Assembly: GCA_028717685.1 (NCBI GenBank)
Contig: JAQUNI010000003.1
Location: forward strand, 64,311 to 128,310
Reading direction: 5' to 3'
DNA from: Patescibacteria group bacterium
Lineage (GTDB): Bacteria; Patescibacteriota; JAQUNI01
Length of the DNA: 64,000 nucleotides
Below are positions 10,684-64,000 of this stretch, one piece after another; the first letter of the stretch is position 1; the number at the start of each line of letters is the position of its first letter. The position numbers were made by a program, and so were the translations under genes. The notes below the pieces were generated by a model that worked only from the letters and a program-made list of their open reading frames with translations, was not told the origin of the DNA and ran no database searches.

Positions 10684-10751
10684 CCAGTATTAAAATATCC
10701 GTTGATTTGTCTTGTTATATAAGCTTGCATATCTATTTTGTTTGAGTAGAA
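10684..10751. repeat. 68-bp direct repeat, copy A (intergenic, 5' of epimerase 9720..10649)
   Basis: 65/68 identical to 14501-14568. Confidence 0.8.
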
Positions 10752-10991: not shown

Positions 10992-12182
10992 TTAGACCAA
11001 ACACGATTGGTAAGCATTAATGATTGTTTTTATATTTTTTTCTTCACTGTAATTTTCTAAGGCAAATTTTCTGCAATTAATACGCATTTGGTCAAGATTT
11101 TTTGGATTTTGGCTTAATTTTTCAAGTTCATGGCTTATATTTTTTATGTGGGGACGCATTATGAACCAAATTTTTCCATGACCGCTTTTAATATTTAATC
11201 CCACTTTTCTCTCTTCACCAAAATATTTAGTCCGATCAGGTAAAATAGGGGGTACTCCGCAACTCAAAGCATGCATTGTTACACGACCGACGTAATCTTG
11301 ATCAACTGACCCCCAGAGCAGTAAATCAGCCGCTGAAAGCCAAAAAGGGATCTTCTTGTTTGGTACGCTGCCGAGATAGTGAACATTTTTGTGAGTAGCC
11401 GCTAATTTTTCCACCTCCATCCTTAAGGGTCCGTCACCAATAATAAAAAACTGAATCTTTTCTGATGTTTGTTTAATGATTTTTATTACTTCATGCACAC
11501 CTTTTTCTTCAGTTAGTCGGCCAATAAATAAAACCATAAAACAGCCTTGCTGAAGATTTAGTTTATTTCTTATCTTAATTTTGTTTCGGGGTTTGAATAT
11601 TTTAATTGTATCAATCCAACAATGACAAATTTTTATTTTCTTGGCTGAAATACCCAGAGAAATTAAACACTGGCCGCATTTTTTTGATAAAAGAGTAATA
11701 ATATTAGCTTTATCTAGGATTTTTTTAGCAAATTTTGCTGATAATGATTTTTTTTTAAATTTATATATTGTGTATAAACTAATAATGGACTTTTTTGAAA
11801 ACAATTTACCGATTATACCCGCTGCCAATCCTGCGGATAGACCATGGCCATGAATAACTTGAATTCTTCTAGAAAGAATAGTGGTATAAAAAACGCTAAA
11901 AATAAAAATTCCCAGAAACAGATAAAGAAACTGTAAGGCTGGATATTTTGTCAATCTATAGAATAAATTAAATTTTATCCATGGCAGGCGAAAGATTTGC
12001 AATCCCAACTTTTTTTCGTAGAGAGGAGCTTTAAAGGAAGAAGTTAAAGGGGAATAAGTAATAACGATAGTCCTCCATTGTCTTTTTGTCAATCCTTGCA
12101 CTAAATCATCTAAATAACTCTCTACACCGCCTATATTTGGGCTAAAAAATGGTGATAGAATTAAAACTGATTTGTTGTACAT
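10992..12182 (-). CDS. GT4 glycosyltransferase
   Basis: LILSPFFSPNIGGVESYLDDL N-terminus, paralog of 17204..18340; C-terminal EX7E-type region. Confidence 0.75.
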   Translation of the reverse strand: MYNKSVLILSPFFSPNIGGVESYLDDLVQGLTKRQWRTIVITYSPLTSSFKAPLYEKKLGLQIFRLPWIKFNLFYRLTKYPALQFLYLFLGIFIFSVFYTTILSRRIQVIHGHGLSAGLAAGIIGKLFSKKSIISLYTIYKFKKKSLSAKFAKKILDKANIITLLSKKCGQCLISLGISAKKIKICHCWIDTIKIFKPRNKIKIRNKLNLQQGCFMVLFIGRLTEEKGVHEVIKIIKQTSEKIQFFIIGDGPLRMEVEKLAATHKNVHYLGSVPNKKIPFWLSAADLLLWGSVDQDYVGRVTMHALSCGVPPILPDRTKYFGEERKVGLNIKSGHGKIWFIMRPHIKNISHELEKLSQNPKNLDQMRINCRKFALENYSEEKNIKTIINAYQSCLV

Positions 12183-14486: not shown

Positions 14487-15585
14487 GACACTCGCCCTTA
14501 CCAGTATTGAAATATCTGTTGATTTGTCTTGTTGTATAAGCTTGCATATCTATTTTGTTTGAGTAGAATGTTTTGTACCATAATAAGGTTTCCCGGATCG
14601 CCTTGGCAACATTCAATTTGGGCTTCCATTTAAGGTTATGAATCGCTTTGGAGTTGTCTAATTTCAGTATTTTAGTTTCGTGTTTTGAACTGTCTTCACT
14701 GACGGTGAAGCTCCCCTTCTTCAAAAAATCAATTGCCATATTGACTACACTAACGACATCCAGCATACTTTCATTTTGAGGACCAAAATTCCAAGAGCCC
14801 ATCTTGTCCGTATGACCTTCATATAAGCTTTGAGCCAATAATAGGTAGCCCCTTAATGGTTCCAGAACATGTTGCCAAGGGCGAATGGCGTCGGGACTGC
14901 GAATAACGAGATTCTGATTGTTGATAAAAAAGGCTCTAATTAAATCCGGAAGCAGCCTGTCTTTATTCCAATCTCCTCCACCAATAACATTGCCGGAACG
15001 CGCGGAAGCAACCAGAGGATAATTTCCGGCTTGATTATTTTTGAAATTAAAGAAGGAGCAAATATGAGAATTCACTGCCAAGTCCGCGCAAGCTTTGCTG
15101 TTACTATAGGGGTCGTAACCTCCAAGCCGGTCATCTTCTTTAAAGGCGACATTTTTTTCTAAATCCTGATAAACCTTATCAGTGGTAATAATAATTCCTG
15201 CTCTAATATTATTAAGGCGGATAATCTCCAACACGTTGATTGTTCCAATAACGTTGGTTGTGTAGGTAGAGCGGGGATTATCATAAGAGTTTCTGACCAA
15301 GGCTTGAGCGGCAAGGTGAAAAATGATATCGGGTTTGAATTTTTTCACTATCCGATTAAGCTGGTGGAAATTTCGGATATCAACTTGGTGATGTTCTATA
15401 TAATCTTTTAAATTAAGGATGTTAAATAGATTAGGATTTGTGTTTGGCGTTAGCGCACAGCCGCAGATTTTTGCGTCCCAATTGAGAAGAATTTGAGTCA
15501 ACCACGCGCCTTTAAAGCCAGTATGTCCCGTGATTAGGATTCTTTTGCCGCGAAAGAATTTTTTTAAGCTTTTTTTCCCCATCAC
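14461..15585 (-). CDS. rfbG: CDP-glucose 4,6-dehydratase
   Basis: ILITGHTGFKGAWL N-terminus typical of RfbG/DdhB; SDR fold. Confidence 0.8.
   Translation of the reverse strand: MMGKKSLKKFFRGKRILITGHTGFKGAWLTQILLNWDAKICGCALTPNTNPNLFNILNLKDYIEHHQVDIRNFHQLNRIVKKFKPDIIFHLAAQALVRNSYDNPRSTYTTNVIGTINVLEIIRLNNIRAGIIITTDKVYQDLEKNVAFKEDDRLGGYDPYSNSKACADLAVNSHICSFFNFKNNQAGNYPLVASARSGNVIGGGDWNKDRLLPDLIRAFFINNQNLVIRSPDAIRPWQHVLEPLRGYLLLAQSLYEGHTDKMGSWNFGPQNESMLDVVSVVNMAIDFLKKGSFTVSEDSSKHETKILKLDNSKAIHNLKWKPKLNVAKAIRETLLWYKTFYSNKIDMQAYTTRQINRYFNTGKGECLDAEKKRS
14501..14568. repeat. 68-bp direct repeat, copy B (forms the C-terminal tail of the 4,6-dehydratase CDS)
   Basis: 65/68 identical to 10684-10751. 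Confidence 0.8.
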
Positions 15586-17203: not shown

Positions 17204-18340
17204 TTAATAATATTTGATAATGGAATTTATATTTTTTTCTGAAAAATTTGTCTCAGCATATCTTCTGCAATTTTGAGATAATCTCAAATATAATTCTTTA
17301 TTGATGTACAATTTTTCTATCGCGGCTTTAATATTTTCAACAGTTGGATCTAGTAATAGTGAAACACTCTTATCCAATGCCTCCGGGATTCCGCCTCTAT
17401 TTGATCCAACAACTGGTAGTCCGCAGGCCACGGCTTCAATTATTGATCTACCAAATCCCTCCTCATATTGTGAAGGAGCGCAAAAAAGATCTGCTATATT
17501 ATAATATTTGTACATTATTTTGTTTTCGACGGACCCAATAAATTTCAAATTACTTAATTCTCTTTCTTGCTCTTTTAAAAATTTTTCCTCCGGACCATTA
17601 CCAACAAAAACAAAATTAATTTGAGGCAATCTTTTTGCCACTTTAACCAAGACTTTTACCCCCTTTTTTTCTAGCAGTCTTCCTGCAAAAAGAACCGTAA
17701 ATTTATCCGCAATATTTAGTTTGTTCCTCAACAAAGTTTTATTTAGAGGTTTGAAAATATTGAGGGCAATCCAATGTTTAAATAAGTCCAATTTTGCTTT
17801 GTGTAGACCAAAAGAGATTAATTCATTATATGATCCTTTGGATAAACATAGAACTTTATCAGTTTTATTTAATATGTAGACAATTCTTTTCGCTGTTTTT
17901 GAATCTTTGTCCAATTCATAGATAGCATGGATGCTAACAATTAATTTTTTATGGAATAATTTTTTTAAAATTCCTCCTATTAAAGCGGCGTTGAGGCCGT
18001 GGGCATGGATTACATCTATTCTATTTTTATTAGTTAAGATCCAAATAAATACTCTGCAGAATAAATATGGTGTTAAATATAAAAAGTCAAGAAGGGGAAA
18101 CTTTTCTACTTTATGAAAAAAGTTTTTGCCAGACCATCTATATCTTTTTATATAGATATTTTTACCTTTCTTTTCGCGAGTTGATGCCTTTATTGAGCTG
18201 GTTAGGGGTGAGTAAGTTTGGACAAAGATATAATAGCCCAAATCATCTAATTTTTTCACCAAATCATCTAGATGTGTTTCTACGCCGCCTACGTTTGGGC
18301 TAAAGAAAGGAGTTAAAATTAATACTTTTTTATTTTTCAT
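17204..18340 (-). CDS. GT4 glycosyltransferase
   Basis: LILTPFFSPNVGGVETHLDDL; paralog of 10992..12182. Confidence 0.75.
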   Translation of the reverse strand: MKNKKVLILTPFFSPNVGGVETHLDDLVKKLDDLGYYIFVQTYSPLTSSIKASTREKKGKNIYIKRYRWSGKNFFHKVEKFPLLDFLYLTPYLFCRVFIWILTNKNRIDVIHAHGLNAALIGGILKKLFHKKLIVSIHAIYELDKDSKTAKRIVYILNKTDKVLCLSKGSYNELISFGLHKAKLDLFKHWIALNIFKPLNKTLLRNKLNIADKFTVLFAGRLLEKKGVKVLVKVAKRLPQINFVFVGNGPEEKFLKEQERELSNLKFIGSVENKIMYKYYNIADLFCAPSQYEEGFGRSIIEAVACGLPVVGSNRGGIPEALDKSVSLLLDPTVENIKAAIEKLYINKELYLRLSQNCRRYAETNFSEKNINSIIKYY

Positions 18341-23233: not shown

Positions 23234-23256
23234 AAGGTTTAGATGAGAACTTTAGT

Positions 23257-23370
23257 AAACCCCGTTAGAGAATTTCGTTCTCTAACCCCGTCTAGAAATT
23301 TATTTCTAACGGGGTCAGCATCCATATTTTTCCTACCACCGATTTCGTCAGCGGCTTTCTCTAACGGGGT
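23257..23370. repeat. cluster of palindromic elements (half-site CCCCGTTAGAAA / TTTCTAACGGGG)
   Basis: gttagagaa/ttctctaac and ccccgtctagaaat/atttctaacgggg hairpins plus a third ttctctaacgggg; related copies at 24454-24482, 41393-41481, 48324-48349, 58490-58533. Confidence 0.7.
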
Positions 23371-23423
23371 AAATTATTTCTTTAGTATTTTTTGATTACT
23401 TCTACTTTATCCAGCTTTTCCAT

Positions 23424-24437: not shown

Positions 24438-24453
24438 AACTTTTTTATTTTTG

Positions 24454-24482
24454 CCCCGTTTAGAAATAAATTTTTAACGGGG
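24454..24482. repeat. palindromic element copy (ccccgtttagaaat aaa tttttaacgggg) between DUF457 stop and GT2 start
   Basis: 13-bp arms; begins with TAAACCCCG overlapping the upstream stop codon. Confidence 0.7.
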
Positions 24483-24483
24483 T

Positions 24484-24906
24484 TTATTCTCCTTCACTAA
24501 ATACTCTAAATTTTTTATATATGCGGTAAATTAAGAAGTAAGAAAAAGTTTTGAGTTCATTGCCAATATCATCAAGAATAAGATGCAGGGTGAACGCGCA
24601 GGCAAGAGCGACTAAAATGGCTCGCTCATGGAATTGCCAGGTGATGAGCCAAAGCAGAATGACAATTTCGTACGAATGTAATGGCACCAGGACTTTTGAA
24701 TTTCGGCGCATATAGTTTTCCGGATGCAAAAATTCTTTGATGTTGCAAGGATTGCGGGGTCTGCTTTTCCAGAAGTCCAAAAGATGATCAAGGTCAAGAA
24801 TAACGCCAGTGAAAAGAAGTGCAATCGCGCCAGTTAAAGAGCGGGTAAAATAGTAGAAGGTGAAGGCTAGGAGGGTTGAGGAAAGAACATGTATTTTTAT
24901 TCGCAT
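24484..24906 (-). CDS. membrane-bound metal-dependent hydrolase, YdjM/DUF457-like
   Basis: ILDLDH, PLHSYE, LHLILDD motifs spaced as in the YdjM family; 3 TM. Confidence 0.45.
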   Translation of the reverse strand: MRIKIHVLSSTLLAFTFYYFTRSLTGAIALLFTGVILDLDHLLDFWKSRPRNPCNIKEFLHPENYMRRNSKVLVPLHSYEIVILLWLITWQFHERAILVALACAFTLHLILDDIGNELKTFSYFLIYRIYKKFRVFSEGE

Positions 24907-40399: not shown

Positions 40400-41428
40400 T
40401 CACCTTTTACCATATTGTCTTTTGTAATATTTAAGGTATTCTTTGGACTTAATTCTTTTCCACCATTCTTCATTATTTTTATACCATTCTATAGTGCATT
40501 TCATTGCTTTTTGAAACTGATACTGCGGTTTCCAGCCTAAACGGCGAACTTTGCTTGAATTTAGGGCATAGCGTCTGTCGTGGCCGAGACGGTCCTTAAC
40601 ATATTCAATCATTTTTTTGTCTCTGTCTAGGGTTTTCAAAATTAACTTAGTAATTTCAAGATTCGTTCTCGGATTATCGCCGCCGATATTATAAATTTCA
40701 CCTATCTTGCCTTTATGGAACACCAGATCAAGAGCCGTACAATTATCTTCAACGTAAATCCAGTCGCGCACATTTTTACCATCGCCGTAGAGGGGAACCT
40801 TTTTTTCTTCTAAAATGTTTGTTACAAAGAGAGGGATCAGCTTTTCCGGATATTGGTAAGGTCCAAAATTATTAGAGCTTCGCGTAATTAATACGGGGAG
40901 GTTAAATGTGCGGTGATAGGCGCGAACCATTAGGTCTCCGCCGGCTTTAGAGGCTGAATAAGGATTATTTGGCGCTAAAGATGATTCTTCGTTCGCTTTG
41001 CCATTAGTGAGGCTGCCGTAAACTTCATCAGTAGAAATTTGGAGATATCTTTTAATCTTGAATTCCTTTACTGCTTCCAGAAGATTTTTAGTACCCAGAA
41101 TATCGGTACGGATAAAATCATCAGCGCCCATAATGGAGCGGTCTACGTGCGTCTCGGCAGCGAAATTTAAAATCCCATCTACATCTTTCGCTATTTTGTT
41201 TACCAGCTTAGCATCAGTAATGTCGCCCTTCACGAATTTATAGCGAGAGGTTTTGATGTCTTTTAAATTATCTAAGTTGCCGCAATAGGTTAATTTATCT
41301 AGGTTAGTGATTCGGTAACGGGGATATTTTTTGAGGAGGTAGTGAATAAAGTTGCTGCCGATAAACCCCGCACCACCGGTGATTAATAATTTCACCCTGT
41401 TAGAAATAAAATTATTTTTTCTTGGCAT
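40400..41428 (-). CDS. rmlB: dTDP-glucose 4,6-dehydratase
   Basis: LLITGGAGFIGSNFIHYLL...YSASKAGGD. Confidence 0.85.
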   Translation of the reverse strand: MPRKNNFISNRVKLLITGGAGFIGSNFIHYLLKKYPRYRITNLDKLTYCGNLDNLKDIKTSRYKFVKGDITDAKLVNKIAKDVDGILNFAAETHVDRSIMGADDFIRTDILGTKNLLEAVKEFKIKRYLQISTDEVYGSLTNGKANEESSLAPNNPYSASKAGGDLMVRAYHRTFNLPVLITRSSNNFGPYQYPEKLIPLFVTNILEEKKVPLYGDGKNVRDWIYVEDNCTALDLVFHKGKIGEIYNIGGDNPRTNLEITKLILKTLDRDKKMIEYVKDRLGHDRRYALNSSKVRRLGWKPQYQFQKAMKCTIEWYKNNEEWWKRIKSKEYLKYYKRQYGKR

Positions 41429-41481
41429 ATATTTTTTGTATGTTAATCATTTTCCCCGCGGAAATCGTATTTCTAACGAGG
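41393..41481. repeat. split palindromic element (ccctgttagaaata ... tatttctaacgagg) bracketing the rmlB start codon
   Basis: half-sites ~55 nt apart; same family as 23257-23370. Confidence 0.5.
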
Positions 41482-45022: not shown

Positions 45023-45029
45023 CAGGGAA

Positions 45030-45145
45030 AGTTAAAAGTTAAATCGCAAAAGGCAAATCTGAAAGGTAAAAGTAAAAACTTTTTACTTTTAACTTGTAGA
45101 TTTCACTTTTGACTTTTGAAATTTGACTTTTAATATTTTTATTCT
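45030..45145. repeat. AT-rich hyphenated inverted repeat (AAAAGTAAAAA-type arms) spanning the GT2 3' end and intergenic region
   Basis: arms ~50 nt centred near 45078. Confidence 0.5.
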
Positions 45146-48287: not shown

Positions 48288-48323
48288 TACTTAATACCTC
48301 CAGTTCAGAAATTTACGGTTTCA

Positions 48324-48369
48324 CCCTAACGGGTGATCTCCCGTTAGGGATGACAGGTCAGGAGACCTG
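48324..48369 (-). promoter_or_regulatory. tandem hairpins in the 5' leader of 47448..48287 (ccctaacggg/cccgttaggg, then caggtc/gacctg)
   Basis: perfect 10-bp and 6-bp stems, no T-run; first hairpin is an everted copy of the CGTTAG element. Confidence 0.35.
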
Positions 48370-48383
48370 AACCAACGTAATGG

Positions 48384-56144: not shown

Positions 56145-57296
56145 ATGACAAATAAGTTGAAACTAAAATTGATAAAAAATCAATATCGCACTTGGTTAGA
56201 AATTGACACCAAGGCAATAAAAAATAACTATCAAATTTTTCGCAATTTAATTCCCAAGGGTTGCAAACTTTGTGGTGTGGTTAAATCTAATGCTTATGGT
56301 CATGGTTTAGTGGACTTTTCAAAAGAATTAGAATGTTTGGATATTGATTTTTTGGCAGTGGATTCTGTTGTGGAGGGTTTGCGTCTAAGAAAAGAGGGCA
56401 TCAAGACTCCGATTCTGGTTTTAGGATATACTTTGCCCTCGTTAGTTAAAAAAGCGGCTATCAATAGTTTAAGTCTAACTATATCTTCTTTTGACGCAGT
56501 ATACAGCTTACCGAAATTACTGGGGCGTAAGAAAATTAAAATTCACCTCAAATTAGACACGGGAATGCACAGACAAGGGTTTTACGAAGATGACGCGCAG
56601 AAAGTATTAAATTTTTTAAGTAAAAATAAGAATATAATTTTAGAAGGTACCTATACTCATTTTGCAGGGGCGAAGAATCCGGCGTTCCCGCAAAACACAA
56701 AAAAACAGCTTGCTATTTTTCAGAAATGGATTAAAGAATTAAGCAAAAAAGGCTGTAAGCCGATTTGCCACGCCGCGGCAACAGCCGGGACTATTCTCTT
56801 TCCAGAAGCGCGTCTGGATATGGCGCGCGTTGGCATCGGACTTTATGGTTTATGGCCATCCAAAGAAATAAAAGCCTTTGCGGCAGAGAGATTAAAATTG
56901 AAGCCGGCAATGCGATGGAAAACAATAATAGGTGAGATTAAAAATCTTTCCAAAGGCGAACGGATAGGGTATGATTTCACCGAGAGGGTAGATCAAAATT
57001 CCAAGATCGCCATCCTGCCTGTAGGCTATTGGCATGGTTATCCGCGCAGTTTATCCAGTATCGGCTATGTTCTGGTCCAAGGGAAAAGATGCAAGATTCT
57101 AGGTCGAATTTCTATGGATATGATTATTATTAACATTAGCGATGTTCCTAGGGCAAAAGTCGGGGATGAAGTGTATCTATTGGGCAAAAGCGGTCAGGAA
57201 AAAGTAAGCGCGGATGATCTGGCGTATCTTTCTGACACTGTAAATTACGAAATTGTGACCAGGATAAATCCATTGATTAAGAAAATATATTTGTAG
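56145..57296 (+). CDS. alr: alanine racemase
   Basis: VVKSNAYGHG PLP-lysine motif. Confidence 0.85.
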   Translation: MTNKLKLKLIKNQYRTWLEIDTKAIKNNYQIFRNLIPKGCKLCGVVKSNAYGHGLVDFSKELECLDIDFLAVDSVVEGLRLRKEGIKTPILVLGYTLPSLVKKAAINSLSLTISSFDAVYSLPKLLGRKKIKIHLKLDTGMHRQGFYEDDAQKVLNFLSKNKNIILEGTYTHFAGAKNPAFPQNTKKQLAIFQKWIKELSKKGCKPICHAAATAGTILFPEARLDMARVGIGLYGLWPSKEIKAFAAERLKLKPAMRWKTIIGEIKNLSKGERIGYDFTERVDQNSKIAILPVGYWHGYPRSLSSIGYVLVQGKRCKILGRISMDMIIINISDVPRAKVGDEVYLLGKSGQEKVSADDLAYLSDTVNYEIVTRINPLIKKIYL

Positions 57297-57388
57297 AATT
57301 TAATATTTTTTCCCTTAAGTTTTGGGAGTTTGGCGGGTACAAGACCCCCTCTAACTCCCCCTTGCCAAGGGGGAGAAAATTTTAAACT

Positions 57389-58492
57389 GTGTCTAAAATC
57401 AAAGTTGGTATTTTATTTGGCGGAAAGTCAGCCGAGCACGAGGTTTCTTTGGTTTCCGCGGAATCAGTGATGGGACATCTTAATCAAAATAAATACGAAG
57501 TGATCCCTGTGGGGATTAACCGCGAGGGTAAATGGATTACAGCAGGCGAGCCTCTAAAACATCTAAAGAAGGGCAGACAAGGAGAGGCGCGGAAAAGGTT
57601 ACTGCCGGCAGTGCACCATAAGGACGCAAAATCTCATGTTGCCACAAAAGCAGTGGACGTGATTTTTCCAGTTTTGCATGGCACTTATGGCGAAGATGGC
57701 ACTGTGCAGGGTTTTTTGGAATTAGCGAATATCCCATATGTGGGCGCGGGAGTTGCGGCATCGGCAATAGGAATGGACAAGGTTTTACAGAAAGAGATAT
57801 TCCGGGCCAAGGACCTGCCAGTGATTAATTATTTGGTTTTTTGGCGCAAGCGAATTTTAGAAAGATTAGATCCCCAGGTCGTGAAAGAGATTGAGGAAAA
57901 AATCGGCTACCCTTGTTTTACCAAGCCCGCTAATTCAGGTTCTTCGGTAGGTATTTTTAAGGCGCATACAAGGGCAGAGCTTCGATATATGATTAAAAAA
58001 ACCGCTCATTTTGACCGCAAGATTATTGTGGAAAAAGCGGTCGCCAACGCCCGTGAGATTGAGGTGGCGGTTTTGGGCAATGATGATCCAGAGGTTTCGG
58101 TTTGTGGTGAAATTATTTCTTCCAATGAATTTTATGATTATGAGGCGAAGTATGTTGACGGGAAAAGTAAAGCGATTATTCCCGCAAAGATTTCCCAAAA
58201 AATAAGTGATGAAATTAGAAAAATCGCGCGAGAAGCCTATCTGGCGATTGACTGCTCCGGAATGGGGCGCGTTGATTTTTTAGTGGATGGAAAAATAAAT
58301 AAAGTGTATTTAAGTGAAATTAATACAATCCCAGGATTTACTTCTATTTCTATGTATCCTAAACTCTGGCAGGCATCGGGTCTTTCCTATCCGCGGCTTC
58401 TGGACAGATTGATTCACCTTGCTTTGGAACGCCACCAAGATAAACAAAAAAATGAGACTATGTTGGAATTAAAAAGTAAGTGGTATCAGTAA
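57389..58492 (+). CDS. ddl: D-alanine--D-alanine ligase
   Basis: VGILFGGKSAEHEVSLVSA..., ATP-grasp C-terminus. Confidence 0.85.
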   Translation: MSKIKVGILFGGKSAEHEVSLVSAESVMGHLNQNKYEVIPVGINREGKWITAGEPLKHLKKGRQGEARKRLLPAVHHKDAKSHVATKAVDVIFPVLHGTYGEDGTVQGFLELANIPYVGAGVAASAIGMDKVLQKEIFRAKDLPVINYLVFWRKRILERLDPQVVKEIEEKIGYPCFTKPANSGSSVGIFKAHTRAELRYMIKKTAHFDRKIIVEKAVANAREIEVAVLGNDDPEVSVCGEIISSNEFYDYEAKYVDGKSKAIIPAKISQKISDEIRKIAREAYLAIDCSGMGRVDFLVDGKINKVYLSEINTIPGFTSISMYPKLWQASGLSYPRLLDRLIHLALERHQDKQKNETMLELKSKWYQ

Positions 58493-58533
58493 ACCCTGTT
58501 GGAGAATTTTGTTTTCTAACCCTGTTAGAAAGG
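58490..58533. repeat. degenerate copy of the CGTTAG palindromic element starting on the ddl stop codon
   Basis: ~85% identical to 23257-23300 (taaaccctgttggagaattttgttttctaaccctgttagaaa). Confidence 0.6.
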
Positions 58534-58577
58534 ATATGGAATATCTTCGCAGGAAGGCAGTAGATTGACTGTGTGTT

Positions 58578-58616
58578 ATAACTAAAAATGGCTTAAATAA
58601 GCCATTTTAGTTATTA
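58578..58616. terminator. bidirectional intrinsic terminator between convergent ddl (+) and hypA-like (-)
   Basis: ~17-bp stem ataactaaaaatggctta/taagccattttagttat with T-tracts on both strands. Confidence 0.55.
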
Positions 58617-58626
58617 TCTTAAGGAG

Positions 58627-58884
58627 TTATTTCATCCCTTGAATTTCTTTTAATTTGAAATAATCCCCCTTTATTTTTTTAATTTGGATTTCCGCGCCTT
58701 CTGCTATAGTTTTTTGATTGAGGAGGTTGATATTGAATTTTAAATTCAGAGGAGCAATAATGGCTCCGTGCTCTTCAATTTCGCCCAATTCAATCACTAT
58801 TTTGGTGATTTTTTTTAAATGATTTTTTTGGGCGTATTCTAAGGCTTGGCGCAAAATTTTGTTGGCAGCGTGAAAGTCATGCAT
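58627..58884 (-). CDS. hypA: HypA-like hydrogenase nickel-insertion protein lacking the C-terminal zinc finger
   Basis: MHD N-terminus and ...TIAEGAEIQIKK align to HypA residues 1-65; no CxxC pairs. Confidence 0.5.
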   Translation of the reverse strand: MHDFHAANKILRQALEYAQKNHLKKITKIVIELGEIEEHGAIIAPLNLKFNINLLNQKTIAEGAEIQIKKIKGDYFKLKEIQGMK

Positions 58885-58890
58885 AAAATG

Positions 58891-58981
58891 GTAATTAGTA
58901 ATCCGTAATCAGTAATTGGTAATTGTGAACAATCAGATGATAGTCGGTAAAAATTAATAGTTACTAATTACTGATTACTAC
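58891..58981. repeat. GTAATCAG-heptamer hyphenated inverted repeat, second copy
   Basis: gtaattagtaatccgtaatcagtaattggtaatt ... aattaatagttactaattactgattactac. Confidence 0.65.
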
Positions 58982-58982
58982 A

Positions 58983-60236
58983 TTAATGTACCGCGCAGGT
59001 GATGCAGGGATCATAGGCGCGGATGAGCATTTTGATATCGTCTTCTTTTTTGTTATTCTCTAAAAATTTTTCCAGATCGTTTTCCAGATTCGCTAAGAAT
59101 TGAGCAGTGGGGGTAATAATATTGCAGTTTTTAATAAAACCCCTCGCATCGGTTTCATAATAATGAAAAAGAAGTCCGCGGGGTGCTTCAGTAACCCCCA
59201 ATCCCCTGCCCGCCTTCGTTTTGTATTTTTGTATTTTTTCCGTTTTGATTTTTAATTTTGAAATGATTTTGATTGTTTCTTCTGTCGCGTGAATTACTTC
59301 AATCATCTGGGCAAGAAGATTATAAAAGATATTATAGCAAGGGAGGGAAAATTCAGTGCGAGCGAGAGCTTTATGCGCGAATGGATTCAACTTTTTGTAA
59401 TTTAAATTGACGCGGCTTAATGCTCCTACAAGATAACTTTCGCCAACAATTTTGACTTTTTTGATTAAGTCCTCTGCCATTTCTTGCTTTTCGTTCGCCT
59501 TTCTCAAAAATATTCGGGGGGAGTAAGTTTTATTTTTAGGCAGTTTAATCTGACCATTATAAAGGGCATATTCTTGTTTATTAGACAAGGCGGCAAAAAC
59601 AGTTAAGCGTTGAAATTCTGGGAAGGTGAGATTATTTAAAAAGTCAAAAAGGTCATTGGCGGTTTCCAGATTTTTTTTCGCAGCATTTAAGATTTTATTA
59701 AGCATTTTTCCCGAGGGCAACTTGCGAAAGCCGCCGATGGCAGTAGTTGTCGGGTGGATGTTGCGGCCGCCGATTGCATTTAGAATGAGGTTGCCAAAGT
59801 CGCGGATTTGGATTGCTTCCTTCGCAGTTTTGGGATTGATTTTCACTAAAGCTAAATCGTTTTTTAAATTAAAAAAATCAGAGAGGGCTAAAAAATAGAT
59901 ATGCGTCATATGGCTTTGAATGAATTGACCGAACAGCATTAGTTTGCGCAGGGTTGTTGTTTGAGGGCTTGCTTTAACGCGTAAAGCATTCTCTATCGCT
60001 TTGATAGCAGTCAAATTATGGACAGTGGGACAAATGCCGCAGATTCGCGCCGTAATCCAAGGCGCTTCAGTGTATTTTCGTCCGATTAATATTCCTTCAA
60101 TAAGCCTCGCTCCTTCTTTGACCTCCAAACGCGCTTCGTGGATGAGACCATTTTCCAGCTTACCCACAAATCCCGCGTGACCTTCAATTTTGTTGATTGC
60201 GTTGATAGAAATGGTAATTTTTTTATTAGTTGGCAT
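58983..60236 (-). CDS. [NiFe]-hydrogenase large subunit (group 3-like), ends at the terminal His with no C-terminal extension
   Basis: N-terminal RICGICP and C-terminal DPCITCAVH nickel-binding motifs. Confidence 0.85.
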   Translation of the reverse strand: MPTNKKITISINAINKIEGHAGFVGKLENGLIHEARLEVKEGARLIEGILIGRKYTEAPWITARICGICPTVHNLTAIKAIENALRVKASPQTTTLRKLMLFGQFIQSHMTHIYFLALSDFFNLKNDLALVKINPKTAKEAIQIRDFGNLILNAIGGRNIHPTTTAIGGFRKLPSGKMLNKILNAAKKNLETANDLFDFLNNLTFPEFQRLTVFAALSNKQEYALYNGQIKLPKNKTYSPRIFLRKANEKQEMAEDLIKKVKIVGESYLVGALSRVNLNYKKLNPFAHKALARTEFSLPCYNIFYNLLAQMIEVIHATEETIKIISKLKIKTEKIQKYKTKAGRGLGVTEAPRGLLFHYYETDARGFIKNCNIITPTAQFLANLENDLEKFLENNKKEDDIKMLIRAYDPCITCAVH

Positions 60237-60364
60237 TTTATCTATTTTACTAATAGAAAATTTTTGATTTTTAACTAATTTGTATTGACTTAATTTCTAT
60301 TGAAATAATCCAATAATCAATTAAAAATTAAATAAAAATTAAGAAGTAAAAATTAAAAATTAAC

Positions 60365-61090
60365 TTATTTGTTCCCAAAAATTTCCAGAACCCTTTCATA
60401 CTCTTTATTGCCTAAAAGTTCTTGCATCTTTTTTTCATTCGGTTCGTTTACCCTGCCGCGGCAGCCAGTGCAGGGCAGGTTACTTTTTAAGCAGATTGCT
60501 TCGCATCCGCCACGGATCATCGGTCCGAGACAGGGTTTGCCCTCTAGAAGCAGGCAGGGATAATTTTTAATTTGGCATTCATAGCAGACTGGACGGTCAG
60601 GCAGATGCGGTTTACTGCCAATCGCTACTTGCCTTAAGACTTCTAAAATTTCTTGATTGTTTGGCGGACAGCCGGGAATAATAAAATCCACGGGTACATA
60701 AGCAGAGAGGGGTTCTATTTTTCTATTATCAATTTTTTTTCCGGAAGACGGATAAACATATTTTAAGATTTTATCTTTATTGCCGTAATTTTTGATTTTT
60801 TGGATATTACCTAGATGAGCGCAGGCGCCTAGAGCGATCAAGGTTTTAGCTTGTTTACGCAGATTTTCCAGTTTTATTTTTTCTTCTTCCCTTGTGACCG
60901 TTCCTTCAATAAATGCAATATCAATGTCTATTTCACTATTAGCTTTTTTGTCCTCAATGAGATGGAAATCCACTAATTCAAAATCCTCCAAGACTTTAAA
61001 AAAAGTTTGGCCTAAATCTAAAATAGAGAAAAGGCAGCCATTACAAGAGGTGAGCGAAGTAATAATTAAAGTTTTTTTCTTTTTTTTCAT
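60365..61090 (-). CDS. [NiFe]-hydrogenase small (delta-type) subunit
   Basis: TSCNGC proximal-cluster motif, multiple Cys clusters, 241 aa. Confidence 0.75.
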   Translation of the reverse strand: MKKKKKTLIITSLTSCNGCLFSILDLGQTFFKVLEDFELVDFHLIEDKKANSEIDIDIAFIEGTVTREEEKIKLENLRKQAKTLIALGACAHLGNIQKIKNYGNKDKILKYVYPSSGKKIDNRKIEPLSAYVPVDFIIPGCPPNNQEILEVLRQVAIGSKPHLPDRPVCYECQIKNYPCLLLEGKPCLGPMIRGGCEAICLKSNLPCTGCRGRVNEPNEKKMQELLGNKEYERVLEIFGNK

Positions 61091-61863
61091 CGGGAAAAAG
61101 GAATACGTTTTTTAGAGTTGAGGTTAATTTTTATCTTTTGGCTTTGGTCCTGATGCTGATTTTTTTTAATAATGCAATGCGTTAAATCAAATGGGTACAT
61201 ACCGGGTTTGCCAAAATCAATGCGTGCAGGGATAGCTTTGCCAATTTTAGCCAAATATTCCAATCTCTCTTGTTTGGCTTTAAGTTTTTTTGAGAGAGAG
61301 ACCAGATTTGCATTGTTGGCGCAATCTATTGCCACCCCAAAGTGGTGGAAGATATTTTGACCTTTGATTACTTTTAAATCCGGCGGCACAAAAACGTTTT
61401 TAAAAATCGTTTTCTTGATGCCATATCGATATTCTAAATCTGCGACACGGTTTTTTTGCTGTTTTTTGATATTAACGAGTTTACAAAGGGTGAGAATATG
61501 GGCTAAGGCATAAGACGGAGAATAGATGTCCTCAATTTTGTTTTCAGCGATACCATCGGCGTGGTCTAGGGCAAAACATTCTAAAATATCTTCTTGGTCA
61601 ATCAAGATTTTATTACGTTTTTTTGCGTAGTAACTAATTGTATTAGGAAAGGCGGTAATAATGTAGCGAGAAAGTGTGGCAAGCTTAATTGGCTTATTTT
61701 TGATAAATTTTTTTAAATCAACGGTGCTGATGCAAAAGGGGTGCAAAAAAAGCCTGCTTACTTCATCAATTGCTTTTGGTGTACATTTTATTTTCTTAAA
61801 ATAAGGCAGGGTTTTTGCCCTTGCCATATTCAATTTTTGGATAAGATCGCCTTTTTTGGCCAT
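61087..61863 (-). CDS. hypothetical protein (few Cys; not an FeS beta subunit)
   Basis: ORF codon-coupled within the hydrogenase operon. Confidence 0.4.
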   Translation of the reverse strand: MAKKGDLIQKLNMARAKTLPYFKKIKCTPKAIDEVSRLFLHPFCISTVDLKKFIKNKPIKLATLSRYIITAFPNTISYYAKKRNKILIDQEDILECFALDHADGIAENKIEDIYSPSYALAHILTLCKLVNIKKQQKNRVADLEYRYGIKKTIFKNVFVPPDLKVIKGQNIFHHFGVAIDCANNANLVSLSKKLKAKQERLEYLAKIGKAIPARIDFGKPGMYPFDLTHCIIKKNQHQDQSQKIKINLNSKKRIPFSR

Positions 61864-62735
61864 AGTTTGTTTTGAAAGACCACAAGATAAAGCCCAAAAA
61901 TTAAAAGCAGAATTCCTGTTATTTTTAAAGGGATCACTTTTTCATTGATAAATATCAGAGAGAGAAGGGAAGTAAGGGGCGCGCCGAGGGTCATAATTGC
62001 GGCGGCAGTGAAAGCGGGAATGTATTTCAAGCCATTATAAAAAGTAGTCACATAACCAAAAAGAATGATGGCGCTAACCACTATCCAAAGATATTGCCAT
62101 AGGGAATAGCCGAGGGTGAAATGAAACCCGTTGTTTTTGACCAGGAGAAATAAAAAGATCAGAATTGCGCCGAAGAACATTCTACCCCAAGCAACCACGA
62201 AGCCTGAAAGATGGGTAAGAACTTTTTTGGCAAGCGCGATTTCAAAAGCCCACATTATCGCAGCTATTAAAATCAGAAGATCGCCGCGATTGAGGCTTTC
62301 CGGTTTATATTGAAAGTAGAAGATACTACCCAAAAGCATTATAAAGGCAGCGACTAGTTCATATTTGTTAATCTTTTTTTTCAGAAATAACCAAGAAATC
62401 GGCACAAGCCAAATAAATATTGTTTTGTGAAAGAAGCTTGCTTGCGCGGCTGAAGTGAGGGTTAAGCCCTTGAAGAAAAGGAGGAAGGGCACAGAGCCGC
62501 CTATAAAACCGATTAAGACCAAATTCCACCAATCCCTGCGGGTCAAATCCTTAAATTCCTTGAGCCGATAGATCAGAAAAAGCATAGCCGTTAATAATAT
62601 GGCAACCAGGAGATTTTTCGCGAAGGTAAAAAAGTAGGGCTCAATACCCGACGCCTCCCATTTATTCAGGAAGACGGAGAAACCAGAGATGATGCTTGTG
62701 GTTAAAATAAGAAGAATGCCTTTAGTGTATTTCAT
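61830..62735 (-). CDS. EamA/DMT-family transporter (10 TM)
   Basis: two EamA-like repeats. Confidence 0.7.
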   Translation of the reverse strand: MKYTKGILLILTTSIISGFSVFLNKWEASGIEPYFFTFAKNLLVAILLTAMLFLIYRLKEFKDLTRRDWWNLVLIGFIGGSVPFLLFFKGLTLTSAAQASFFHKTIFIWLVPISWLFLKKKINKYELVAAFIMLLGSIFYFQYKPESLNRGDLLILIAAIMWAFEIALAKKVLTHLSGFVVAWGRMFFGAILIFLFLLVKNNGFHFTLGYSLWQYLWIVVSAIILFGYVTTFYNGLKYIPAFTAAAIMTLGAPLTSLLSLIFINEKVIPLKITGILLLIFGLYLVVFQNKLWPKKAILSKN

Positions 62736-62739
62736 AAGT

Positions 62740-62880
62740 TTATTGAAATCCTAAATCCTAAGCACCAAATCCTAAACAATATCTAAATCCAAAATTCAAA
62801 ACTGTTTGAATTTAGAGATTTGAATTTTGAATTTGTTTAGAATTTAGGATTTAGGATTTGGGATTTAGAATTTTGAAGAT
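62740..62880. repeat. AT-rich hyphenated inverted repeat (cctaaatcctaa... / ...ttaggatttagg) with central aaactgtttgaattt and tttgtttagaattt
   Basis: related to 53227-53337 through the shared gtttgaaWtt / tttgtttagaaWtt cores. Confidence 0.55.
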
Positions 62881-63058
62881 ATCTATTTATATAATTCGCT
62901 TGTTTTGAGGAAATTTTAGCAATTACAAAGCCATTCTGTTCTAGAACCCAGTCCCCCATTTTCACGGAAACCAAGGAAGAATCAAGGATCTTGTCTTGGT
63001 TGCTGGTGGCTTTGTTTTTATTTAATTTTATGATTTGATGGGGAATGGCAAGGCACAT
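62837..63058 (-). CDS. hypC: hydrogenase maturation factor HypC/HupF
   Basis: MCLAIP N-terminus; VKMGDWVLEQNGFVI. Confidence 0.8.
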   Translation of the reverse strand: MCLAIPHQIIKLNKNKATSNQDKILDSSLVSVKMGDWVLEQNGFVIAKISSKQANYINRYLQNSKSQILNPKF

Positions 63059-63059
63059 A

Positions 63060-63230
63060 GAAACAATTTTAAATTCTAAATTTTTAATTTTAAATCAAAT
63101 CTAAATTTTAAATTATTTAATTTTAACCCCCTTTTTCCCTTTGTTTTAAAATTTAAAATTAGGATTTTAAAATTGATTTAAAATTCAGAATTAAAAATTT
63201 GAAATTTTTAAATAATGTTGGGTAAATCTT
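63060..63230. repeat. AT-rich inverted repeat region (taattttaaatcaaatctaaattttaaatt ... aatttaaaattaggattttaaaattgatttaaaatt)
   Basis: imperfect ~30-bp arms. Confidence 0.45.
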
Positions 63231-63876
63231 TAATCTCTGCCCAGGAGAATACCGGTCCTTCTTTACAGACGTATTTTCCGTTCGGGAGCGCGCAGTGTTG
63301 GCAGATGCCGACGCCGCAGTGCATGCGCCGTTCCAAAGAAAGATAAATCTCATCATCTTTAAACTTTAATCTTTTCAGCCTCTCCATAACGAATTTATAC
63401 ATTATCGGCGGTCCTACCACGAGAGCCAGAGCATGTTCAAGGGTTTTGTATTTATCAAATAAAGTGGTAATCACGCCAATATTTCCTTTCCATTGCAGCT
63501 GGCATTGATCCAGGGTTACTTTAACATCAATATCCTGCTTTTGCCAAGAAGGGAATTCCTTTTCAAAAATGCGGTATTCTTCGCATTTAGTACCATAGAA
63601 GAGCTGGACCTTTTTGTAAGTAGCGCGGCGATGTAGAATGCTTAAAATTACGGAACGTAAAGGGGCGAGACCAATGCCGCCGGCAATAATGAGCAAATTT
63701 TTATGTGCCAGTTTTTTCAAGGGAAAACCGCGTCCATAAGGTCCTCTCACGCCCACATAGTCGCCTTGATGCTTATGAAAGAGGGCAGAGGTGACAATAC
63801 CTTTTTCCTGAACCGTGATTTGAAATTGTTTGCTGTTGTATTGGCTGGAGCAAAAGGCGAAAGGCGCTTCACCCAC
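63208..63876 (-). CDS. hydrogenase gamma-type FAD/NAD and 2Fe-2S subunit (HydG/PyrK-like), N-terminally truncated
   Basis: GGIGLAPLRS, C-terminal CGVGICQHC..C; ~40 N-terminal residues of the FAD barrel are missing; reading frame closes at 63892. Confidence 0.65.
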   Translation of the reverse strand: MGEAPFAFCSSQYNSKQFQITVQEKGIVTSALFHKHQGDYVGVRGPYGRGFPLKKLAHKNLLIIAGGIGLAPLRSVILSILHRRATYKKVQLFYGTKCEEYRIFEKEFPSWQKQDIDVKVTLDQCQLQWKGNIGVITTLFDKYKTLEHALALVVGPPIMYKFVMERLKRLKFKDDEIYLSLERRMHCGVGICQHCALPNGKYVCKEGPVFSWAEIKDLPNII

Positions 63877-63895
63877 TTTGGGAATGGAAAGTTAG

Positions 63896-64000
63896 GATCA
63901 ATACGATAAAGCATTGGAAAATGTGGATAAAGCCATAGATTTGAATGGCAACGTGGCAAAATACTGGGCAAACAAAGGGCTGGTGCAAATCGCCCTGCAA
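63896..64000 (+). CDS. partial ORF fragment, TPR-like (DKALENVDKAIDLNGNVAKYWANKGLVQIALQ), runs off the window
   Basis: open frame with TPR-like W-LG-Y pattern and no start codon. Confidence 0.3.

Follow-up and report, generated by a model that had tools for sequence, protein, structure and literature searches.

A family of short palindromic elements with 4-bp target duplications, probably transposable, in a Patescibacteria contig and in genomes labelled as several phyla

We analysed a 64,000-nt stretch of a contig from a Patescibacteria group bacterium (JAQUNI010000003.1, positions 64,311 to 128,310; hereafter the window), in which an initial annotation, made from the sequence alone, had noticed a dispersed family of palindromes often abutting stop or start codons. 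The family is borne out by counts of its half-site, CCCCGTTAGAAA, which matches the window 7 times at up to 1 mismatch where 0.50 matches are expected, a number attained in 0 of 100 dinucleotide-preserving shuffles; with up to 2 mismatches allowed, 15 matches stand against 6.7 expected, a modest excess. The description given in the annotation holds for the sequences at 23257-23370, 24454-24482, 41393-41481 and 58490-58533, and a map of open reading frames (ORFs) combined with Pfam places every clear copy in a spacer or at a gene end (Table 1). The palindromes are probably copies, for the most part decayed, that belong to a family of tiny non-coding mobile elements of the kind known as MITEs (miniature inverted-repeat transposable elements). 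The family has the terminal inverted repeats, the fixed 4-nt duplication and the small, non-coding, multicopy bodies at unrelated loci by which MITEs are recognized, together with near-identical copies in unrelated flanks, an intergenic bias, and presence and absence of a copy at one orthologous site.

The most complete copy in the window, at 23256-23373, had been read as three copies of the palindrome. It is one composite element with outer inverted ends of 13-14 bp and TAAA on both flanks. The target duplications occupy 23256-23259 and 23370-23373 and read TAAA on the plus strand and TTTA on the minus strand, on which the right flank, TTTACT, matches the consensus target of the family. An nhmmer profile built from 62 long-form copies (described below) matches the window at 23254-23373, and the copy aligns with copies from Omnitrophota and Doudnabacteria, with a small internal deletion. 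Folded as a single strand it reaches -25.5 kcal/mol (z=-6.2), and its nested hairpin reaches -17.9 kcal/mol as RNA (z=-5.9). An equal composite is present in L072, a Doudnabacteria contig, where the inner hairpin has its own TCAG/TCAG flanks.

The remaining copies are more worn. The segment at 58490-58533, which had been likened to 23257-23300, is homologous to it, since each of them aligns with the long-form model at its right-end hairpin (nhmmer E=1e-4 for 58488-58524, model positions 87-123). It is a mutated fragment of the same composite subtype as 23256-23373, and this common subtype accounts for the identity of ~85% between the two segments; its plus strand reads AGTAAA, which is the TTTACT target on the minus strand. 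The copy at 24450-24486 folds weakly (-10.1 kcal/mol, z=-1.9), and its right flank contains the stop codon of a 140-aa ORF on the minus strand (24484-24486). At 41395-41481 the NUDIX ORF stops at a TAG (41473-41475) within one arm and the second arm sits at the 5' end of the epimerase gene; the two arms are unpaired in the minimum-energy fold. The TAA of the shared beginning TAAACCCYGTT had been taken to be or to overlap a stop codon; it is one in two of the three copies, in ddl (58490-58492) and in the 140-aa ORF, and not at 23257. A further hairpin at 48324-48349, proposed as an everted member, lacks the architecture of the family and has no counterpart where relatives have the orthologous spacer. 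Elsewhere, everted arrangements mark the junction of two tandem elements; we do not count 48324-48349 as a member, and it is possibly a remnant of two abutting ends.

Table 1. Copies of the element in the window, their parts, and one related hairpin
Feature	Position	Strand	Sequence or evidence	Location
Composite long-form copy, including both 4-bp target duplications	23256..23373	-	nhmmer E=1.5e-21, full model	Spacer between GT2 glycosyltransferase and methyltransferase genes
Terminal inverted repeat arm; right end in element orientation	23260..23273	+	CCCCGTTAGAGAAT	Within 23256..23373
Internal direct copy of element end	23278-23286			Within 23256..23373
Nested 29-nt short hairpin inside long form	23287..23315	.	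CCCCGTCTAGAAAT-TT-ATTTCTAACGGGG	Within 23256..23373
Long-form internal hairpin 1	23335..23355	-	GCCGCTGA-CGAAA-TCGGTGGT (minus strand); compensatory changes across 62 copies	Within 23256..23373
Terminal inverted repeat, second arm; left end in element orientation, then AAAGCC	23356..23369	+	TTTCTCTAACGGGG	Within 23256..23373
Short hairpin copy, variant and decayed	24450..24486	.	CCCCGTTTAGAAATAAATTTTTAACGGGG at 24454-24482; flanks TTTG/TTTA	Spacer between 140-aa ORF and GT2 gene (24454-24482)
Degenerate 87-nt copy, without recognizable duplication	41395..41481	.	Arms CCCTGTTAGAAA and TTTCTAACGAGG	Spacer between NUDIX and epimerase/dehydratase genes
Truncated, mutated copy: long-form right-end hairpin and one nested-hairpin arm	58490..58533	-		Immediately 3' of ddl stop codon
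Strong small hairpin, not counted as a copy	48324..48349	.	CCCTAACGGG-TGATCT-CCCGTTAGGG; family 8-mer shared, arm order opposite	

Comparison material came from two scans, one for the exact hairpin CCCCGTTAGARA-N(1-14)-TYTCTAACGGGG in one genome per GTDB species (at least 120 loci) and one for the long-form left end CCCCGTTAGAGAAAGYYRYYGA-N3-8-TCGGYGG in metagenome contigs (at least 120 loci). Together they retrieved more than 240 loci, which is a lower bound, and all statistics for hairpins (n=122) and long forms (n=117) refer to copies among the matches listed. The only part shared by all copies is the terminal inverted repeat of 12-14 bp, CCCCGTTAGA(G/A)A...T(C/T)TCTAACGGGG. Around it the copies fall into three size classes: bare hairpins of ~28-38 bp; a structured long form (110-113 bp) that contains two internal hairpins as well as a right-end hairpin, the latter formed by an internal direct copy of the end; and assorted forms of 50-150 bp with unrelated interiors. 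The classes are held together by their ends, as the long form, whose lengths peak sharply at 110 and 113 nt, shares 13-bp inverted ends with the hairpins, elements of 50-146 nt are bounded by the same ends with matching 4-nt flanks, and short hairpins with GAGAAC stems match the long-form right-end hairpin. Hairpin stems have perfect arms of 12-14 bp, in which position 11 and its partner covary in 115 of the 122 hairpins. Pairing is likewise kept inside the long form, where, among 62 copies, pair 22/38 appears as AU in 32 and as GC in 20, and pair 27/33 as CG in 27 and as UA in 18; a central helix of at least 7 bp is formed by 39 of 57 copies, which use 33 different stem sequences.

Identical 4-nt direct repeats flank 62 of the 122 exact hairpins, compared with a mean of 8.6 and a maximum of 17 when left and right flanks are randomly re-paired, and the per-position match between flanks is high (85-96 of 122) at a repeat length of 4 only. 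These repeats follow the pattern YNNR and vary widely (TAAA, TTTA, TCAA, CAAG, CTAA, TTTG, CGAG, TCAG and others), including among copies of the same hairpin in one genome, JBDRHJ01, where they read TCAG at L039, CTAA at L044, CTGA at L056 and TGAA at L090. Because they differ in this way, the repeats evidently arose at insertion and do not belong to the element. Long forms have identical flanks in 102 of 117 cases. When oriented, their left flank is TTTA in 97 of 117 and TAAA in 3, and the right TTTA is followed by C (+5) in 101 and by T in 82. The target is approximately TTTAC(T), or (A)GTAAA on the other strand, and contains TAA. Flanks that depart from this consensus can still match left to right (TTCA/TTCA, CTTA/CTTA, TTGA/TTGA, TCTA/TCTA, TTTG/TTTG), with the C still following; among such non-consensus flanks, equal and unequal pairs are about equally frequent. 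We also considered a guide-encoded tetranucleotide of the IS608 kind and rejected it, as flanks other than TTTA occur without an accompanying internal change.

The copies are biased in their position relative to genes. Hairpins lie within a long ORF in 28% of cases, against 71% of random positions, and 89 of 106 long forms are intergenic. A stop codon falls in the duplication of 7.4% of hairpins and at 0.5% of random positions, so that the abutment of stop codons noticed in the window is real; it arises because the target TTTAC/GTAAA contains TAA and is duplicated on insertion. Enrichment in spacers and at stop codons, together with the great stability of intact hairpins, would also be consistent with hairpins retained by the host for action at gene ends, as mRNA 3' stabilizers resembling those of repetitive extragenic palindromic (REP) sequences, as terminators or as insulators, and such roles have been proposed for REPs (PMC3733652). 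We regard this as quite improbable. Terminator prediction called no terminator-like structure with a U tract at the window copies, and the orientation of long forms with respect to the flanking genes is unbiased (38:41 on the left, 41:42 on the right), which leaves the earlier suggestion of a terminator or RNA-stability hairpin weak. Of the four window copies, three have mutations and form poor folds, relatives have no copies at the same sites, and purifying selection against genic insertions explains the intergenic bias equally well. Rfam 15 gave 0 matches in the window at gathering score, and a search of one intact long form by E-value threshold gave chance-level matches only. The window copies look like passive insertions that are mostly decaying.

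Evidence of movement comes from several kinds of comparison. Among 110-nt copies, 13 pairs are at least 95% identical and none of them shares flanks; near-identical copies in unrelated flanks point to recent spread to new sites. Comparison of Ddl homologues and their contigs shows an element directly after CAGTAAA at the 3' site of ddl in the window strain (the window and L255) and in L254 (Ddl 88% identical), whose copy has an intact end and whose contig breaks off within the element. The same site is empty in L253 (Ddl 95%) and L123 (Ddl 81%), whose spacers have diverged and do not offer a nucleotide-exact empty site. No copies were found in ~100 kb of syntenic DNA of relatives. Short-read (Logan) contigs of the window organism and a relative also end inside the element (L121, 139 nt past the GT2 stop; L122; L254), since a multi-copy repeat limits assembly contiguity.

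Tandem arrangements allow another reading of the repeated tetranucleotide. In L042 (2490-2710) and L161 (30-70) two tandem elements share one duplication, CTCA and TAAA respectively, and the duplication plus the first C of the element restores a TTTAC-type target. Under conservative site-specific recombination, with a tyrosine or serine recombinase as the catalyst, crossover would take place within the repeated 4-5 nt, which would then not be a duplication, and the abutted ends ...TCTCTAACGGGG-TTTA-CCCCGTTAGAGA... would form a core resembling lox or dif on a circular intermediate. Such a mechanism would suit orientation-specific insertion at a short asymmetric core, an end junction with an asymmetric 4-nt spacer between the arms of a 13-bp inverted repeat (the arrangement in the L161 and L042 tandems), and the similar numbers of equal and unequal non-consensus flanks, which heteroduplex resolution predicts. 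It must nevertheless be judged very improbable, as arm-like conservation is missing from the target outside TTTAC(T), the spacer, at 4 nt, falls short of the 6-8 bp usual for tyrosine recombinases, recombinase genes do not recur around the copies examined, and the flanks of short forms are very diverse.

The initial annotation had raised the possibility of hairpins specific to this lineage, and this is refuted by exact hairpins in genomes labelled as at least six phyla. By record title the matches listed comprise 35 loci in Patescibacteria (candidate phyla radiation, CPR), 32 in Omnitrophota (including the closed genome of Candidatus Velamenicoccus archaeovorus LiM, NZ_CP019384.1), 19 in Nitrospirota, 19 in Planctomycetota, 5 in Deltaproteobacteria, 3 in other Proteobacteria, 1 in Cloacimonadota, 1 in Aenigmatarchaeota and 5 unclassified. 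The G+C content of the loci spans 30-60%, several exact-hairpin matches are on contigs of more than 200 kb, and there are ~5 extra copies per 100 kb beyond the ascertained one. Outside these genomes the element is scarce or absent: in IMG/VR it is carried by 3 of 2.9 million contigs, and BLAST of the long form against 72,556 plasmids returned chance matches only. An archaeal occurrence was considered and dropped. The sole contig labelled as Aenigmatarchaeota, L021 (JAUXAV010000067.1), is a 6.4-kb high-coverage contig with a bacterial-type che operon (CheB, a CheY-CheX fusion, CheD, CheR and MCP) split by three hairpin copies, and its archaeal (DPANN) bin label is probably wrong.

This distribution bears on the suggestion that a dimeric transcription factor uses the palindrome as its operator to control envelope-glycan genes. 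The idea drew on a 12-bp inverted repeat with short spacing, and three of the four window copies do lie within a stretch at ~23-44 kb whose sampled genes are glycan-related; neighbours elsewhere are diverse. We find it hardly credible. The copies carry target-site duplications, there are 108 distinct loop sequences with lengths between 1 and more than 14 nt, so that the spacing of half-sites is not fixed, and copies are found after stop codons and between convergent genes, not at promoters. Across the 240 loci the neighbours are unrelated housekeeping genes (S2, EF-Ts, RF-1, FtsW, ABC transporters), the same sequence occurs under the many phylum labels given above, and syntenic relatives keep the genes without the palindrome.

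We looked for the enzyme that moves the element in the surroundings of the copies. When the 3,076 ORFs of 240 loci (1.6 Mb) were clustered all against all, only generic families and housekeeping genes emerged. Within these 240 loci we found no recurrent small transposase-like ORF or ORF resembling a REP-associated tyrosine transposase (RAYT), and no recurrent Y1 transposase or recombinase gene near the copies; no IS1380-type transposase turned up in the loci examined, where no search aimed at that family was made. Pairs of distant ends with matching flanks, candidates for an autonomous element, enclose ordinary genes (pilin-like, ArsD/PII, ribosomal L25), and L167, with a left end and no right end, is a truncated copy. 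The ORFs beside orphan ends look like ordinary proteins by eye, without a Pfam scan. An unannotated ORF 'family' at 16 loci is the translated element itself. The long form is open in one reading frame (...VNPVRE...RRLKSAAFSNGV...), which yields spurious ORFs of 100-190 aa in L189, L198, L096, L173 and 12 more loci; these ORFs (...VNPVRE...FSNGV...) cluster as a 'conserved hypothetical' family. The absence of a transposase is weak evidence, because metagenome bins under-represent insertion sequence (IS) elements.

Several observations weigh against the reading as a MITE. There is neither an autonomous element nor a recurrent transposase in the 1.6 Mb around the 240 ascertained copies. No clean nucleotide-level empty site or polymorphism was found among overlapping loci, and the ddl comparison spans diverged spacers. 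Use of the asymmetric target is almost confined to one orientation, which is unusual for DDE transposons, and compensatory changes maintain the internal hairpins, whereas a plain transposase that binds double-stranded DNA does not require pairing. Finally, the phylum labels derive from metagenome bins, and at least one of them (the 'Aenigmatarchaeota' of L021) is probably wrong.

The target and the covariation are also what would favour mobility by a single-strand-specific HUH tyrosine transposase (REPIN/RAYT-like, TIRYT-like or derived from IS200/IS605), acting on folded hairpins beside a T-rich tetra- or pentanucleotide in one orientation. Compensatory changes preserve the subterminal and internal hairpins, with no strand bias with respect to transcription, a missing cognate IS would be expected if a single-copy gene acted in trans, and there is precedent in RAYT-like genes flanked by inverted-repeat families, the TIRYTs (PMC3733652). 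We hold this route, the main rival as to mechanism, to be unlikely. Both flanks share the same 4 nt even when these are not the consensus (~8 independent long-form cases), whereas in an IS608-type mechanism the left tetranucleotide is the target and the right one is borne by the element and guide-encoded. One hairpin also occurs with many different flanks in a genome, and IS608-type flanks should not covary so freely. The GTAG/CGTC tag is absent and, as noted, no Y1 transposase recurs near the copies.

The reading as a MITE can be set against the systems that it most resembles. Examples of bacterial MITEs include Correia/NEMIS in Neisseria, RUP in Streptococcus pneumoniae and Nezha in cyanobacteria. 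Like these, the present family is short and non-coding, with inverted ends, a duplication of fixed length, many copies in spacers, hairpin folding and, to judge by the ddl site, apparent insertion polymorphism. Unlike these, its shortest forms (28-38 bp) are essentially two ends and a loop, its ends occur across genomes labelled as several phyla and not in one genus, insertion uses an asymmetric target in a single orientation, and a parent IS was looked for without success. On this reading the family belongs to a known kind. The family itself appears undescribed: its 12-mers were not found in the searchable literature (8 million papers), and nothing was found there on MITEs in these phyla or on a 4-bp TTTA target.

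Its description as REP-like, also offered initially, stands as a loose analogy; no RAYT-like gene was seen near the 240 copies. Like the REP/REPIN-RAYT and TIR/TIRYT systems (PMC3733652; PMC3116915), the family comprises extragenic palindromes of 20-40 nt and hairpin-forming doublets of ~100 nt, with the mobilizing gene outside the element and a location mostly downstream of genes. REPs have a fixed unpaired GTAG/CGTC tag, whereas here there is no tag and variable 4-nt direct repeats stand on both sides; the REP survey (PMC3733652) makes no mention of target duplication. Elements of the IS200/IS605 group and their palindrome-associated derivatives share with this family an oriented, T-rich target of 4-5 nt. 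Their subterminal hairpins are functional, and action on folded DNA would explain the covariation seen here, but they have neither terminal inverted repeats nor a duplication, and both are present here, with flanks matching left to right.

Likeness to integron attC sites was examined because of the imperfect palindromes with ...TCTAAC and GTTAGA... boxes, which resemble R'' and R' cores, and attC sites are common in environmental phyla. We rejected it, as the order of the boxes is inverted here (GTTAGA 5', TCTAAC 3'), the stems are perfect without extrahelical bases, and the copies are single and dispersed by housekeeping genes, not in cassette arrays beside an integrase. The small dispersed repeats (SDRs) of Nostoc, reported by Elhai et al. 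in 2008, are very small mobile repeats of cyanobacterial genomes, often nested in other repeats. They show that repeats no longer than a few tens of nucleotides can be mobile, and they differ from the present family in sequence and hosts.

For an enzyme, the IS1380/piggyBac superfamily is the best lead, and it is a lead and not a test. IS1380 elements have ends starting CC(C) and make 4-bp T/A-rich duplications. The element end CCCCGTTAGAAAG may resemble the piggyBac end CCCTAGAAAG. The elements described here have CCCC ends and a 4-bp duplication. In piggyBac the ends begin CCC and the 4-bp duplications are TTAA with variants TAAA, TCAA and CTAA, and IS1380 is its prokaryotic relative (PMC10813416). 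The variants TAAA, TCAA and CTAA occur here too. TTAA itself is rare, unlike in piggyBac, the preferred TTTA is non-palindromic, and no IS1380-like transposase is linked to the ends.

For the MITE-like family as a whole, the most economical guess at a mechanism would be a DDE transposase with 4-bp staggered cuts, encoded elsewhere and moving the elements in trans. Insertion duplicates 4 bp of the target, preferably a T-rich one, TTTA followed by C. An element landing on a stop codon can spare the gene, the target containing TAA and being duplicated, and surviving copies accumulate at gene ends and in spacers. A bolder form of the MITE reading, which we consider rather unlikely, holds that these are ultra-small hairpin transposons (down to ~28 bp) of broad host range, currently active in uncultured groundwater and sediment bacteria (with labels of Omnitrophota, Patescibacteria, Nitrospirota, Planctomycetota and Desulfobacterota), mobilized in trans by an enzyme whose gene lies outside the elements and which would combine traits that rarely occur together, namely a true 4-bp duplication, an asymmetric TTTAC target in one orientation and structure-constrained internal hairpins.

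Other repeats are present in the window and in the loci compared with it. Long, imperfect, A/T-rich palindromes unrelated to the CCCCGTTAGA family fill spacers at 62746-62873, 63062-63209 and 45028-45130 and contain heptamer-like units (AAATCCT, AAATTTT, AAAAGTT). A cyanobacterial origin or a relation to known cyanobacterial repeats, which these heptamer repeats had suggested, is unsupported by the genome scan and by synteny. The best labelled matches of the window, LeuRS among them, reach only ~40-46% identity to CPR loci, which points weakly to a Patescibacteria-like bacterium. Direct repeats of 68 nt (96% identity) lie at 10684-10751 and 14501-14568, and repeats of 92 nt (75% identity) at 12091-12182 and 18249-18340, the latter spanning the 5' ends of two minus-strand ORFs that are probably paralogous sugar-modifying genes. 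A second, unrelated palindromic family with ends GGCTCCATAG...CTATGGAGCC occurs in L072 (1901-1933, the Doudnabacteria contig) and L214 (9344-9376), and also, among relatives of the window, at ~1255-1380 in L123 and L124, whose spacer there is the orthologue of window 48288-48383; the window itself lacks this family. Another small element is indicated by a 68-nt palindromic insertion, TCAAATAACAAATAAATTCC...GGAATTTATTTGCAACTTGTTATTTGA, that is filled in the near-identical L159, L184 and L252 and empty in L204.

The genes around the ddl copy form a distinct neighbourhood. At 56145-64000 alr-ddl adjoin hypA and a [NiFe]-hydrogenase cluster (large, small, FAD/NAD-binding and Fe-S subunits), an arrangement kept in relatives L123-L128 (Ddl 74-81% identity). 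Upstream lie Wzy/Wzz-type glycan genes, an HtrA-like protease, DUF5656 and LeuRS.

For this window the result removes a tempting false lead, in that its palindromes are not to be read as the operator of a glycan regulon, and it explains both breaks in assembly and spurious 'conserved ORFs'. The element is also a simple sequence tag with which horizontal DNA flow may be traced among Patescibacteria, Omnitrophota and bacteria that live alongside them. Hundreds of metagenome-assembled genomes with very different labels carry it, and it would be an unusually promiscuous MITE if those labels hold. The family is unusually small and widespread, and the mobilizing enzyme may be unusual as well, since the combination of a 4-bp duplication, an oriented asymmetric target and covarying hairpins fits neither the DDE nor the HUH textbook pattern neatly. 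Should the ultra-small-transposon reading prove true, it would imply a new transposition mechanism or a new domesticated transposase, and shared copies could mark DNA exchange between ultra-small episymbionts and their neighbours.

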